Of a DNA stretch of 32,000 nt, positions 4,977-29,512 are shown piece by piece. The notes beneath the pieces were generated by a model. That model ran no database searches. It saw only the letters and a list, made by a program, of their open reading frames with translations, and had not been told where the DNA came from. The translations under genes were made by a program, and so were the position numbers. Within the stretch, counting starts at the first letter, position 1. Each line of letters starts with the position of its first letter. Source of the DNA: Candidatus Velamenicoccus archaeovorus (lineage in GTDB: Bacteria; Omnitrophota; Gorgyraeia; Velamenicoccales; Velamenicoccaceae); assembly GCF_004102945.1 (NCBI RefSeq), contig NZ_CP019384.1, positions 1,380,001-1,412,000 of the forward strand, read 5' to 3'.

Positions 4977-5443
4977 AAAACCTCCTTAATTCCGCCTCTG
5001 GCGGATTAACCCCTGCCTGCCCGCCGGGCAGGCGAGCCTGCGCCAGTCCATTTCATGAACGCCTCTGGCGTTTGTGAGTGAAATGGACAAGCGCCCGCCA
5101 CCACTGCGTCGGCGGGCGTCCGCCGAAGAACTAGTGGCGGACGTTTTGGCCAGGGGTCTTTCTTTTAAAAATCCTTCCGCCTCCGGCAAAATTAGGCCCT
5201 TCGCTTATTTGGTATTGCGAAGGCCTACCCTTTCTGGGTTAGACCCTCCGCTATGTGGTTACCCGACTCTATCGGATGAGTCGGTATGCCGCTTTCTGCG
5301 GCATGCGGAGACCTACCCTTTCTGGGTTAGGTCCTCCTCTATGTGGAATGCGGAGACCTACCCTTTCTGGGTTAGGTCCTCCTCTATGTGGAATGCGGAG
5401 ACCTACCCTTTCTGGGTTAAGCCCTATACCGAAGCGCTCCTCC
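4977..5443. repeat. REP/BIME-like array of nested imperfect palindromes, including a 45-bp unit repeated 2.6x in tandem (5305-5420)
   Basis: Units 5305-5349 and 5350-5394 are identical (gcggagacctaccctttctgggttaggtcctcctctatgtggaat), with a partial third copy to 5420. Longer variants lie at 5190-5304. Additional hairpins lie at 4986-5009, 5014-5030, 5048-5089, 5092-5117 and 5119-5143. Confidence 0.85.
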
Positions 5444-20722: not shown

Positions 20723-20743
20723 TGGCTCCCCCGCGAGGACTCG
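20723..20743 (-). pseudogene. 21-nt exact copy of the tRNA-Asn 3' end (att-like scar)
   Basis: tggctcccccgcgaggactcg is identical to 21095-21115. Confidence 0.8.
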
Positions 20744-20760
20744 GCTACTGATGTTTTTTT

Positions 20761-20825
20761 TGGCTCCCCCGCTCGGGTCGTCGCTCGGTTGCCTGCCTCG
20801 CTCAAAAACTCGAACCTCGGACCTG
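20761..20825 (-). pseudogene. Interrupted copy of the tRNA-Asn 3' end
   Basis: tggctcccccgc (12 nt) and actcgaacctcggacctg (18 nt) both match the tRNA-Asn 3' region. They are separated by a 35-nt insert where the intact gene has 4 nt (gagg). Confidence 0.7.
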
Positions 20826-21051
20826 TCGCTCCTCGCCTGCCTACTAAATTTATTCATTAAGGATGTCGGCAGCTCGGTCGCTCCCCATAGGGGAACCCAA
20901 TGGTTCCCCCTTTGGCGTCGCCCGCCTCGGCCTTCAGCCAAGGCAGGCTCCTGTCACCCCCTCCCTAGCATCCAAACGATATGCTTAAGGGGAAAACGGT
21001 CTTTTCCCCTTAATAATCCCCTTTTTAGGTCCTCGATTCGTCTCCCAGAAA

Positions 21052-21094: not shown

Positions 21095-21446
21095 TGGCTC
21101 CCCCGCGAGGACTCGAACCTCGGACCTGGTGGTTAACAGCCACTCGCTCTTAAGTTTGTTGCTCCCTGCTGTACGCAGGTGGGTTGATATTGGGATCAAC
21201 CTCTCCCGTTTCTTTTCTATCGAGTCATGCCGGGAGTTCGGACTATCGCTTTGCCGTTTAATACGGCATTCCGTCGCTTAGTCTCTCACGCTGTCCTTTT
21301 TTACAGGACTTGCGCCTTGTCACCCACTCCTGGGCCTCCAAGTCAATCAGACGGAATTTAACGTCGGCATTGTTTCCGGAAGTCAGAGAGCCATGCCACT
21401 CGCTCCCTGCCTGCCGGCAGGCAGGTACCGACTGAGCTACGGGGGA
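21095..21446 (-). tRNA. tRNA-Asn(GUU), interrupted by a 276-nt intervening sequence in the D-loop
   Basis: Exon 1 (21446-21427) reads TCCCCCGTAGCTCAGTCGGT. Exon 2 (21150-21095) reads AGAGCGAGTGGCTGTTAACCACCAGGTCCGAGGTTCGAGTCCTCGCGGGGGAGCCA. Joined, they form a canonical 76-nt cloverleaf with anticodon loop CTGTTAA and an encoded CCA. Confidence 0.75.
21151..21426 (-). ncRNA. Group-I-intron-like intervening sequence
   Basis: Pairings occur in canonical order. P1: exon GUCGGU with GCCGAC (21368-21363), giving U-G at the junction. P3: UUCCGUC/GACGGAA. P4: GACUUG/CAAGUC. P7: AGACUA/UAGUC. P8: UGCCGU-AUUAA-ACGGCA. Three 3' hairpins follow. There is no omega-G at the inferred 3' junction. Confidence 0.5.
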
Positions 21447-21491
21447 ATAAAGCTATAAAGAACGGAAAATCCACCCTGAAGGGGTGGAAAG

Positions 21492-27787: not shown

Positions 27788-27878
<91 letters not shown>

Positions 27879-27909: not shown

Positions 27910-28338
27910 TCAATATAAAAAACTTCTAATCAAAGCATCAAGCTTCTGAAAAGCTTCCTTGCTATGGTAACGCAACTTAAAAGTGCCGTTTGGATTCGGC
28001 CTGTATTTACTATTCTTTGCTTGAAATACAATCGTTTTATTAAAATTTCCCAAAGGAATGCCGCTTATTCGCGACCACTTTTTCTCTAGCTTTATTTTAT
28101 GAATATCGTTGTATATAAAAAGCTGTCCCTTTAATCGGACCCTGTCAATCTTGATAATTTTGTTTAAAAATTCTGCGAACAGACTGATAATTTTAAAATT
28201 ACTGTTTGTAAATTCAATAGCCCAATAGTAAACATTTTTTCTTCTCTTATCCTTGCGTAATTGGGTTCCCTCGCAACAATATAATATGGCTCCGATAATA
28301 GACAACTCTCTTTTGCTGAACTTACGCTTAATATTCAT
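27910..28338 (-). CDS. AT-rich ORF, possibly a single-motif LAGLIDADG-type homing endonuclease
   Basis: 142 aa. ELSIIGAILYCCEGT occupies the position of the LAGLIDADG helix plus acidic residue. A later GTFKLRYHSKEAFQKL pattern is also present. It is strikingly AT-rich compared with its neighbours. Confidence 0.4.
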   Translation of the reverse strand: MNIKRKFSKRELSIIGAILYCCEGTQLRKDKRRKNVYYWAIEFTNSNFKIISLFAEFLNKIIKIDRVRLKGQLFIYNDIHKIKLEKKWSRISGIPLGNFNKTIVFQAKNSKYRPNPNGTFKLRYHSKEAFQKLDALIRSFLY

Positions 28339-28355
28339 CCCCCCATTTTACGATA

Positions 28356-28817
28356 TTAATTATTCTTCGCTCTCTGCTTCCTAAAAAAATCCTGCAGCAA
28401 ACCGGCGCATTCCTGCTCCAGGACCCCTCTCTTCACTCTGATCCGGTGGTTCAATTTTGCGTGATGGAGGATATTAAGGACCGAGCCGCCGGCGCCGGTC
28501 TTTGGGTCCGATGCGCCGAAAACAACGCGGTCGATACGTGAAAGGACAAGGGCCCCGGCACACATGCTGCATGGCTCTATCGTCACATAAAGGGCGCAAT
28601 CTTTCAACCATTTAGCACCCAGATGATTGGTGGCCTGCGTCACGGCGATCATCTCTGCATGGGCTGTCGGATCCTTCAAAAGCTCCACCTGGTTCCACCC
28701 CCGGCCGATGATATGATTTTTGTGAACGACGATGGCCCCGACAGGGACATCCTCTGAATCGGCCGCTTTGTCCGCTTCCTTCAAGGCATACCTCATGAAA
28801 TATTCATCGGAGAACAT
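28356..28817 (-). CDS. tadA: tRNA-specific adenosine deaminase TadA
   Basis: HAEMIAV (His-Ala-Glu) and PCSMCAGAL (PCxxC) deaminase motifs. The start is chosen at the ATG giving MFSDEYFMRYALKEA; 28862 and 28796 are alternatives. Confidence 0.9.
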   Translation of the reverse strand: MFSDEYFMRYALKEADKAADSEDVPVGAIVVHKNHIIGRGWNQVELLKDPTAHAEMIAVTQATNHLGAKWLKDCALYVTIEPCSMCAGALVLSRIDRVVFGASDPKTGAGGSVLNILHHAKLNHRIRVKRGVLEQECAGLLQDFFRKQRAKNN

Positions 28818-28942
28818 GGAATAAAAAGGAAGGTTAAGAAGCCGAAACCGCCCCTGCTTCAACCGCGATATTGATCCTTCGCAAAATTATGGAAAACAAA
28901 CCTCGGTTTGCTCAAGACAAATCTTTGCTGCGCAAAAATTTA

Positions 28943-29220
28943 GTGCGCCCAAGAGGATTTGAGTCTCGCTTCGGCCTTCGGCCGGTCTCGACACCGGGCC
29001 GCTCACCTTCTCGCGGCCCCGCTAAACGGTCGGACTTACTCGTCCGACCAGCGGCCTCCGGTTCAAATCCTCTTGAAAAAAGTGCGCCCAAGAGGATTTG
29101 AGTCTCGCTTCGGCCTTCGGCCGGTCTCGACACCGGGCCGCTCACCTTCTCGCGGCCCCGCTAAACGGTCGGACTTACTCGTCCGACCAGCGGCCTCCGG
29201 TTCAAATCCTCTTGAAAAAA
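28943..29220 (-). repeat. Two identical 139-bp tandem units carrying the tRNA-Arg 3' end and its inverted copy
   Basis: Units 28943-29081 and 29082-29220 are identical by eye. Each starts (plus strand) with gtgcgcccaagaggatttga, the same 20 nt as 29221-29240 at the tRNA-Arg 3' end. Each ends with ggttcaaatcctcttg plus A6. Confidence 0.9.
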
Positions 29221-29221
29221 G

Positions 29222-29295
29222 TGCGCCCAAGAGGATTTGAACCTCTAACACCTAGCTCCGTAGGCTAGTGCTCTATCCAGTTGAGCTATGGGCGC
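29222..29295 (-). tRNA. tRNA-Arg(ACG)
   Basis: GCGCCCA-TA-GCTC-AACTGGATA-GAGC-A-CTAGC-CTACGGA-GCTAG-GTGTT-AGAGG-TTCAAAT-CCTCT-TGGGCGC-A. 74 nt, with no encoded CCA; it is followed by CTTTTTT. Confidence 0.9.
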
Positions 29296-29304
29296 AGGGT
29301 TACT

Positions 29305-29333
29305 ATTTTAATATCCACAAGCTTTTCTGACAA
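29305..29333 (-). promoter_or_regulatory. Candidate tRNA-Arg promoter
   Basis: Minus strand reads TTGTCA (29333-29328), a 17-nt spacer, then TAAAAT (29310-29305), 9 nt before the tRNA 5' end. Confidence 0.4.
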
Positions 29334-29512
29334 GCGTAATTTAAGTGACGCTCCTACGGCAGAGGCTGACGACTTTTTTGCCTGCGGAACTCCGACGATC
29401 CTTCGGATGCCGGCACTCCGATCCAGAAGGCCCTGACAGAAGCCGAGAACCTTCTGGCGTCGGAGTAATTATTATCTTGCATTTAGCGCAGAAATAAGGT
29501 ACCTTTCTATCT

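Follow-up and report, generated by a model that had tools for sequence, protein, structure and literature searches.

Why do two perfect tandem repeats stand between the gene of tRNA-Arg(ACG) and the gene of the enzyme that edits this tRNA? The question is raised by a 32,000-nt stretch of Candidatus Velamenicoccus archaeovorus (Omnitrophota; contig NZ_CP019384.1, positions 1,380,001 to 1,412,000), called the window below and numbered from its first letter. On its minus strand, a candidate promoter, tRNA-Arg(ACG) lacking an encoded CCA, two repeat units and tadA follow one another, an order described in an initial annotation made from the sequence alone, and in which all features proved to be present. 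The tRNA is the substrate of the deaminase TadA, and its sole tRNA substrate. The annotation held that the two genes are linked through the repeats, for which it suggested several roles: a small element targeting tRNA 3' ends, a processing or termination module, or a tRNA mimic. We conclude that the units are tRNA-linked repeats (TLRs) by their position, their copy of the tRNA 3' end and their predicted closing stem. They are a lineage-specific insertion and not a tadA-specific regulator, and their adjacency to tadA is coincidental.

Anatomy of the units and their place among tRNA-linked repeats

The units form a perfect tandem repeat with a period of 139 nt, the copies being 100% identical. 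Each is 132 nt long (unit 1, 29083..29214; unit 2, 28944..29075; both on the minus strand) and is preceded by a CTTTTTT spacer, found at 29215..29221 between the tRNA and unit 1 and, as an identical junction, at 29076..29082 between the two units (minus strand in both cases). A unit begins with CAAGAGGATTTGAACC, hereafter antiT (29214-29199 and 29075-29060), the exact complement of 16 nt of tRNA-Arg covering the 5' GG of the T-stem, the T-loop, the 3' strand of the T-stem and the first two acceptor bases. After three predicted hairpins it ends with TCAAATCCTCTTGGGCGCA(C), hereafter the T copy (29101-29083 and 28962-28944), which in both units is identical to the last 19 nt of tRNA-Arg, from T-loop to discriminator, or to 20 nt when the next base is counted. 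AntiT is also a perfect complement of 13 nt at the unit's own 3' end. The initial annotation had read both ends in this way, and its anatomy is confirmed.

The minimum-free-energy (MFE) fold of a unit is predicted to be a four-way junction, in which a 13-bp stem between antiT and T copy encloses three hairpins and leaves a tail of 4-6 nt; the last hairpin, GGCC-GAA-GGCC, is followed by GAAGCGAGAC and then by the T copy. This is the cloverleaf-like shape that had been proposed from the letters. Its energy is -69.5 kcal/mol (z = -5.5), and none of 200 shuffled sequences folds as well. AntiT of unit 1 may also pair with the T-arm of the tRNA itself, in a 16-bp hairpin whose loop contains the CTTTTTT spacer.

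Several known kinds of structured element were considered for the units and rejected. An intrinsic terminator or attenuator, for which a GC-rich hairpin would have to run straight into a U-run, is not supported: a scan found no terminator-like site in 28900-29300, and T-runs come 7 nt past the closing stem or else fall within the loop of the hairpin between the units. The Rfam tRNA model and ARAGORN both found only the real tRNA and left the units unscored; with about 36-40 of its 132 nt derived from tRNA, the unit does not pass for a tRNA mimic. Termination and mimicry, as roles first suggested for the units, were thus not borne out, whereas a processing module and a small element targeting tRNA 3' ends are both still viable. 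A Rho-dependent rut site was rejected, the unit being G-rich and fully structured, as was a known self-cleaving ribozyme, none being matched in Rfam. Likewise, no nuclease or recombinase gene is associated that would fit an omega- or bridge-RNA-like guide, and a retroposed, polyadenylated tRNA fragment, an idea that came from the T6 run, was abandoned because other units have mixed AT-rich spacers. The open reading frames (ORFs) across the repeat, already dismissed in the annotation, are not supported as genes: none is called there on a contig of a sister strain that carries a single unit (L001, see below). More generally, ORFs of 62-93 aa across such repeats should not be called genes.

Is such a build new? 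It is already known from Escherichia coli (the TLRs, with RtT, Rfam family RF00391), which the initial annotation missed although its anatomy was correct. TLRs were first seen in 1978, behind E. coli tyrT. By a definition that goes back to Egan and Landy (1978) and Rudd (1999), a TLR belongs to a tRNA or rRNA operon, where it comes immediately behind a stable-RNA gene, and 18-19 bp at its 3' end are identical to the end of that upstream gene; E. coli has 22 such sequences at ten loci, with one to five per locus (PMC8144298). They have no known function or origin, save for three rRNA-linked copies, which are processed small RNAs (sRNAs) binding Hfq and CsrA in vitro; RrA, RrB and RrF are themselves TLRs (PMC8144298). 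PMC8144298 and PMC3318445, the latter citing Bosl and Kersten (1991), report E. coli TLRs as processed RNAs. In our case, unit 1 begins 7 nt past the discriminator of tRNA-Arg on the same strand, both units end with the 19-nt (20-nt with the next base) identity given above, and two units are present in the window and one in L001. As predicted from a single sequence, the window unit also has the parts of the RF00391 fold, namely a closing stem, enclosed hairpins and an unpaired tail. In the RF00391 consensus, 5' GgGaaGGAU pairs with the tRNA-derived 3' AUCCuuCcC, hairpins lie inside, and ccaCCACCA is left unpaired.

The comparison with E. coli was made on the tyrT-tyrV and serV-argVYZQ regions. 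There argV, argZ and argQ, all genes of tRNA-Arg(ACG), are each followed by a TLR, and those behind argV and argZ are predicted to form four-way junctions, with a closing stem GGGAGGAU / AUCCUCCC and a last hairpin GCCC-GAA-GGGC, followed by GAGCCGCAAGGCGAGUA (...GCGAGUA) and the T copy. The likeness to the window begins with location: the repeats stand right behind a tRNA, on its 3' side and in its orientation, and finish with its last 18-20 nt. They come singly or as several tandem copies, they share a predicted closing stem that encloses hairpins and leaves a 3' tail unpaired, and their last hairpin, capped by a C-GAA-G triloop, leads into a purine-rich stretch containing GCGA. Even spurious ORFs running through the repeats recur (in E. 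coli, tpr). The differences are equally plain. E. coli belongs to a different phylum, and its TLRs have no detectable similarity to the window unit, by sequence or by covariance model. The T copy of the window has no CCA, because the tRNA-Arg gene has none, and antiT is a perfect complement of 13-16 nt, against 8-10 bp in E. coli; in the tyrT repeats, unlike in the window, the T-loop complement adjacent to the stem carries a GA substitution. Lastly, the window unit sits between a tRNA and an mRNA gene.

We therefore file the units under the TLR kind, and not under the RtT family. A scan of the unit region with Rfam, at the gathering threshold and at E <= 10, returned tRNA only, plus chance matches, and the units matched no family. 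RF00391, whose gathering score is 45 bits, gave no match on 28700-29500 even at E <= 10, nor any on ten other Omnitrophota loci with units; the same Rfam library scored the E. coli tyrT repeats at 133-138 bits. Since RF00391 gives no match, the window unit is a new sequence type, of the TLR kind only. In the open-access literature searched, TLRs are described only from E. coli and other enterobacteria, and we found no description of TLR-like elements in Omnitrophota.

A precise insertion into a phylum-wide gene cluster

Do the units tie tadA to its substrate? The locus was compared with 80 Omnitrophota loci (L003-L082), found via TadA at 60-90% identity. In 74 of the 80, tRNA-Arg(ACG) lies upstream of tadA on the same strand, mostly with tRNA-Ser just downstream. 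The spacer between tRNA-Arg and tadA is at most 100 nt in 39 loci (range 29-100 nt, often 29-60 nt) and holds no unit there; on the tRNA-Ser side it is often 7-20 nt. tRNA-Arg(ACG)-tadA-tRNA-Ser is thus a phylum-wide cluster, and probably an operon: conserved order and spacers suggest a tRNA-mRNA-tRNA operon, of which no description was found in the literature searched. As the same gene order exists without units in most Omnitrophota, the units are an insertion into an existing cluster, and the proposal that the substrate and enzyme genes are linked through the repeats has to be given up.

An empty junction is seen in L003, which among the loci compared represents the nearest other species (90% TadA identity). 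There, TTAAATTTTTGCGCAGCAAAAATTTG... joins tRNA-Arg directly, and this is the same sequence that follows unit 2 in the window. The insertion was therefore precise, and it is flanked by a 20-nt repeat. What remains between unit 2 and tadA is the ancestral spacer of 147 nt (28797..28943, minus strand), with homologous sequence directly after the tRNA in L003 and after the unit in L005. It contains an AU-rich hairpin, AAATTTTTGC-GCA-GCAAAGATTT, at 28941-28919, and a candidate promoter-like site from the promoter scan, TTGAGC-18-CATAAT, at 28915-28886, downstream of the units and common to L003.

The number of units also differs between strains. L001 (NCBI contig JBEEQD010003744.1), from a sister strain 99.4-99.6% identical over 10.6 kb around the locus, has exactly one unit where the window has two, a clean 139-nt difference. 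The unit is also present in a Logan contig from another run, and one Logan contig breaks inside it; altogether, a single unit is seen in two or three independent assemblies. The initial annotation had raised the concern of a mis-assembly. Presence in independent assemblies means that the unit itself is real; the second copy, which L001 lacks, may reflect either variation between strains or a difference in assembly. Tandem arrangement is nothing unusual for elements of this kind: in L053 two tandem units differ at about 9 of 115 positions, and tandem arrays are also found in L066, L096, L097, L102 and L200.

The remaining features of the locus are as follows. tRNA-Arg(ACG) (29222..29295, minus strand) was found by ARAGORN and scores 67.1 bits with the Rfam tRNA model. 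The candidate promoter, TTGTCA-17-TAAAAT (29305..29333, minus strand), is sigma-70-like by consensus match only (10 of 12 positions), ends 9 nt 5' of the tRNA and is kept in L001. For tadA, the tRNA adenosine(34) deaminase gene (28356..28796, minus strand), the call was upheld by the NCBIfam equivalog NF008113 (189.9 bits, cut-off 150) and by Pfam deaminase domains. Alternative starts lie at 28817 and 28862, and public gene calls give 146 aa and 168 aa. The spacer of about 80 nt first given between unit 2 and tadA holds only from the TTG start at 28862; it is about 147 nt from the start at 28796, which we adopt because homologues and one public gene call begin there (MRYAL...). tRNA-Ser(GGA) (27793..27878, minus strand) is the third member of the conserved arrangement.

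Other genes are found in the spacers of this cluster. A 142-aa ORF lies between tadA and tRNA-Ser(GGA) in the window (27910-28338, minus strand); it has no match in Pfam and sub-threshold matches only in NCBIfam and PDB. It is called as 157 aa in L001 and is absent in L003, where 81 nt separate tadA from tRNA-Ser; this spacer is also widened in L004 and L006 (610-745 nt). On the other side of tadA, a gene stands between tRNA-Arg(ACG) and tadA in at least nine species (L016, L017, L030, L041, L050, L060, L065, L068 and L079), with a spacer of 754-797 nt in those nine loci. That of L016 encodes a 237-aa protein which, by eye, is histidine-kinase ATPase-like (GLGLSVV motif).

Similarly built units elsewhere in Omnitrophota

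Units of similar build are found behind other tRNAs. Among 177 tRNAs (Arg and Ser, from the tadA loci and the window), about 15 have a copy of their own 3' end within 400 nt downstream, compared with 3 in the upstream control. The copied sequence differs between species exactly as the tRNA does, and in most cases an inverted T-arm segment is also present just past the tRNA. By inspection, the cores fall into unrelated types: that of the window, those of L005/L081, L049/L011, L006/L053, L066 and L037, and those of the tRNA-Ser units L015 and L007. In most of these types, folding predicts that the T copy pairs with the 5' segment, as in E. coli TLRs.

One type could be followed into metagenomes. 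At least 120 metagenome contigs contain a 19-mer that the cores of L005 and L081 have in common. Among the matches listed (122 copies), 86 lie at most 160 nt downstream of a same-strand tRNA; these tRNAs have 19 anticodons (Lys, Thr, Met, Arg, Phe, Gln, Trp, Ala, Pro), and 83 of the 86 copies end in 10-34 nt of the 3' end of that very tRNA. An L005-type unit also follows the transfer-messenger RNA (tmRNA) in L085 (43-640), where antiT, GGGAATTCGAACCCC, and T copy, GAATCCCCCCGCCT, match the tmRNA 3' end. For 49 of 62 units, the T copy has its right edge between -1 and +4 nt of the tRNA 3' end, and CCA is included where it is encoded; the left edge varies. The 5' flank of L005-type units pairs better with the tail of its own tRNA than with the tails of other tRNAs (means of -17.5 and -11.9 kcal/mol, p = 2e-12). 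Judged from sequence, this family-wide co-variation of antiT with the type of tRNA supports a pairing between antiT and T copy.

Which strand matters can be asked of the family as a whole. Two variable hairpins of L005-type units keep their pairing while their sequences change between copies. The tRNA-sense strand folds better than the antisense strand in 62 of 62 units, with 337 G-U pairs against 150. This strand bias points to a single-strand constraint, most simply at the level of RNA. Like the tyrT repeats of E. coli (RtT), many units have an imperfect antiT, with GAGAAC opposite GTTCGA, a tandem G-A mismatch in the closing stem, whose conservation argues for selection on structure and not for simple templated copying. 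Two observations on the core itself, taken from an alignment of 62 units (A1), may be added: it has five GGGG tracts and two CCCC tracts, and it shows repeated GCGA...GAGC frames, with potential tandem sheared G-A pairs around mini-hairpins closed by C-GAA-G or GNRA. Such a core might bind a protein or form a G-quadruplex. E. coli RtT has the same type of motif (GAGCGAAAGCGAG, GCGAAGC).

A covariance model, R1, was built from the 62 members of A1. Its matches were strong in L005, L056 and L081 and weak in L011, in L049 and at window positions 20799-21046. It gave no match on window positions 28944-29214, where the two units lie, and none to the E. coli TLRs, for which reason the idea that the window unit, the L005 type and the E. 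coli TLRs form one sequence family was dropped. That they have the same build was kept: the window unit is linked to the RtT and L005-type families through its predicted build and short motifs only. The L005-type core is not in Rfam.

The weak match of R1 in the window (E = 0.045) belongs to a second TLR-like locus, at 20723-21046 on the minus strand, with a unit of the L049/L011 type. Here the order is the 3' half of a tRNA-Asn(GTT)-like gene (21095-21156), a strong terminator (21090-21050), and then the unit, in which the 3' part of the tRNA is copied three times (GGTCCGAGGTTCGAGT at 20823-20808, CGGGGGAGCCA at 20771-20761 and GAGTCCTCGCGGGGGAGCCA at 20742-20723). A different variant stands at this locus in L001 (14086-14700), the strain being 99.5% identical, which indicates that TLR-like loci turn over quickly.

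The tRNA-Asn(GTT)-like gene itself is interrupted (window ~21095-21445, minus strand) and is called neither by ARAGORN, with or without introns, nor by Rfam at the gathering threshold. Its 5' part, TCCCCCGTAGCTCAGTCGGTA, is followed by a 20-nt palindrome, CCTGCCTGCCGGCAGGCAGG, in the D-loop, and by an insert of about 245 nt with an 11-nt direct repeat, GAGCGAGTGGC, on either side (21405-21395; 21149-21139). In this insert Rfam has a weak group I intron match at 21269-21358 (E = 0.6). The interruption could be an intron, an insertion or the mark of a pseudogene. At the 5' end of the same gene, L001 (13381-13749) carries a 336-nt cassette encoding an 80-aa GIY-YIG protein and flanked by a 17-nt direct repeat, TTATTCCCCCGTAGCTC, which includes the tRNA 5' end; the cassette is absent from the window (~21434-21450). 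The palindrome CCTGCC(TG)CCGGCAGGCAGG is inserted in the tRNA-Asn D-loop (window ~21400-21420) and also in the TLR units of L086 and L138, which hints at a tiny palindromic mobile repeat. Elsewhere in the window (5303-5419, plus strand), a perfect 45-nt tandem repeat in 2.6 copies, with the hairpin GGAGACCTACCC-TTTCT-GGGTTAGGTCCTCC in each, is unrelated to TLRs.

Possible readings: trailer RNA module or mobile element

How might the units work? The account to which we lean, at about an even chance, is that they are RNA modules of a co-transcribed tRNA trailer, cut at their tRNA-like 3' end, with a copy number that changes by recombination between the repeats; transcription, processing and function are all putative here. 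Transcription from the promoter upstream of tRNA-Arg would run on through the tRNA and the units, since no terminator lies between and since, in most relatives, tadA is too near the tRNA to have a promoter of its own. Each unit would fold on itself, 5' antiT with 3' T copy, into the predicted four-way junction, the copy of the acceptor strand being left as a single-stranded tail. Because the 3' end of the unit repeats that of the tRNA and the U/A-rich stretch behind it, the nuclease trimming the tRNA's 3' end would also cut after each unit. Such cuts would release discrete RNAs of about 132-139 nt, apart from the tadA message, by analogy with E. coli RttR and RrA/RrB/RrF. Unequal recombination or slippage between the direct repeats would then change the copy number. 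Two systems offer possible parallels, 3'ETS-leuZ, which acts in sRNA sponging, and RrA/RrB/RrF; in both, a non-coding RNA is cut by processing nucleases from the trailer of a stable-RNA operon. Unlike RrA/RrB/RrF, which have Hfq and CsrA as partners in vitro, the window units have no predictable partner.

A number of observations weigh against this account. The window core has no sequence relative in any of the sets searched: there is no further copy in the 32-kb window, no match by blastn and nhmmer in the 80 Omnitrophota loci, and none in JGI metagenomes (21-mer), IMG/VR viral contigs (22-mer) or PLSDB plasmids, so that this unit type has no covariation support. Nor is the unit detected by Rfam RtT or by R1. 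Its antisense strand folds nearly as well as the sense strand (-65.5 against -69.5 kcal/mol), which means that the window unit alone cannot tell which strand matters, and the sense-strand advantage of L005-type units may partly reflect their G-richness. A strong terminator precedes the units at the second locus of the window, in L109 and in L118. In L125 (560-1140), the spacer between 23S and 5S contains two L005-type units that face away from the direction of the rRNA operon, being on its other strand; each finishes with about 35 nt copied, in antisense, from the 5' end of 5S. As DNA, the succession of gene end, element and gene-end copy is kept there, and the transcriptional sense is not. 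(The 23S gene of L125 carries two group I introns.) About six L005-type cores (L110, L121, L153, L182, L190 and L201) are found in 5' untranslated regions (UTRs), without tRNA or T copy, before a Shine-Dalgarno sequence and a start codon. The L005-type core can therefore exist without a T copy. These cores are preceded by a hairpin of their own, GGTTCTTTCG...CGAAAGAACC, and the downstream genes are unrelated (those of L153 and L201 are Rho-like by eye), which suggests a portable 5'-UTR RNA module. Lastly, turnover between strains fits a mobile element acting at the DNA level too.

Such an element is the main and a serious rival explanation, which we regard as possible but doubtful. The unit would be a miniature, non-autonomous mobile DNA element targeting the T-loop and 3' end of tRNA genes. 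Its direct repeat would be an att-like or duplication-like flank, antiT and T copy would be terminal inverted repeats or a hairpin copy of the target, and the RNA structure would be either a by-product or of use to a transposition intermediate made of RNA or single-stranded DNA (ssDNA). Precise borders and the pattern of presence and absence (none in L003, one in L001, two in the window), which give the impression of a recent event, speak for this, as does the 20-nt direct repeat, from T-loop to discriminator +1, with its empty site in L003. The same can be said of the L005-type core behind 19 anticodons, tmRNA and 5S, among the matches listed, with termini matching the local target; of the L125 units, antisense to the operon with their DNA geometry kept; of several near-identical orphan copies in unrelated 5' UTRs; and of the replacement of the second TLR locus by another variant in the 99.5%-identical strain. 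Yet no recombinase or transposase lies in or beside the unit, which has only about 112 nt between the repeats, no integrase or cargo is present, and the neighbours are a beta-lactamase-family protein and TadA. Other copies of the core, which the initial annotation had envisaged, and the dispersal expected of a miniature inverted-repeat transposable element were found neither in the window nor among the 80 loci, metagenomes, viral contigs and plasmids, and the L005-type core has no match in the viral contigs. Further, no known mechanism duplicates a target of 14-36 nt and also writes a target-specific inverted copy of it. The tandem G-A mismatch conserved in many related units and in RtT argues for selection on structure, and hairpins that pair with differing sequences, together with the G-U asymmetry, point to a single-strand constraint.

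Known mobile DNA fits in part. At tRNA att sites and in CIMEs, which are cis-mobilisable att-flanked remnants, as in the window, a direct repeat reaching from the T-loop to the tRNA's 3' end flanks an insertion and leaves the tRNA intact; Williams is said to have described this block, in 2002, as the classic identity block of T-loop-targeting integrases. The window insert differs in being about 112 nt long, with no cargo and no integrase, and a site-specific integrase that carries its att site does not explain an L005-type core behind 19 tRNA species with matching ends. Correia/NEMIS, ERIC and RUP elements, too, are small structured repeats (100-200 nt) of intergenic DNA; their ends are inverted, they are transcribed along with the genes beside them, and they vary between strains. 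They have fixed terminal repeats and short target duplications and are not tied to tRNA 3' ends; unlike those of the TLRs, their ends do not change with the neighbouring gene.

Two further explanations have to be set beside the trailer-module account. That the units form a cis-regulatory leader of tadA, controlling read-through or sensing tRNA-Arg via antiT, is unlikely, despite their location in a probable operon, where they separate tadA from its substrate tRNA gene on the same strand, the complementarity of antiT to 16 nt of the tRNA, and the L005-type cores lying directly before a Shine-Dalgarno sequence and start codon in 5' UTRs. Most Omnitrophota have the same order with a spacer of 29-100 nt and no unit, the closest other species has no unit and the sister strain one, units of the same build follow tRNA-Ser, and L005-type units are found behind 19 tRNA species where tadA is not near. 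The scan found nothing terminator-like within the units, the promoter-like site conserved in L003 lies downstream of them, and pairing in trans with a folded T-arm is unlikely. About as improbable is an origin as a neutral remnant, left at the tRNA by some old rearrangement or integration event, or as an artefact, the second copy being an expansion made in assembly. This would agree with the perfect identity of the copies, the single copy in the other assembly of the species, the break of a Logan contig inside the unit and the lack of relatives of the window core in the 80 loci and JGI metagenomes. However, a single unit recurs in two or three independent assemblies, its fold is far better than that of shuffled sequences (z = -5.5), its non-trivial build recurs in many independent units, in Omnitrophota as in E. 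coli, and diverged tandem pairs exist elsewhere (L053).

What, then, does the locus mean for its organism and for TLRs at large? The cluster encodes, across the phylum, the sole tRNA substrate of TadA beside this editing enzyme. For the units, what is new is the core sequence and the distant phylum; the build was already known from the E. coli TLRs, and by itself the finding adds no new principle. As a speculation that we think rather unlikely to hold, TLRs would be structured mobile RNA (or ssDNA) elements present across phyla, homing to the 3' ends of tRNA-like genes (tRNA, tmRNA, 5S) and rebuilding there a target-specific antiT and T copy; the window unit would then be a lineage-specific member caught moving, with 0, 1 or 2 copies among close relatives. 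The ends could be rebuilt via a folded hairpin mimicking the target duplex, or in a step that is templated by RNA and delimited by the processing of tRNA 3' ends. In Omnitrophota, units of similar build are common, which turns a curiosity of a single species into a comparative data set on structure, processing signals and mode of spread, and opens a class left unexplained in E. coli for about 45 years to comparative analysis, by covariation and population genomics.

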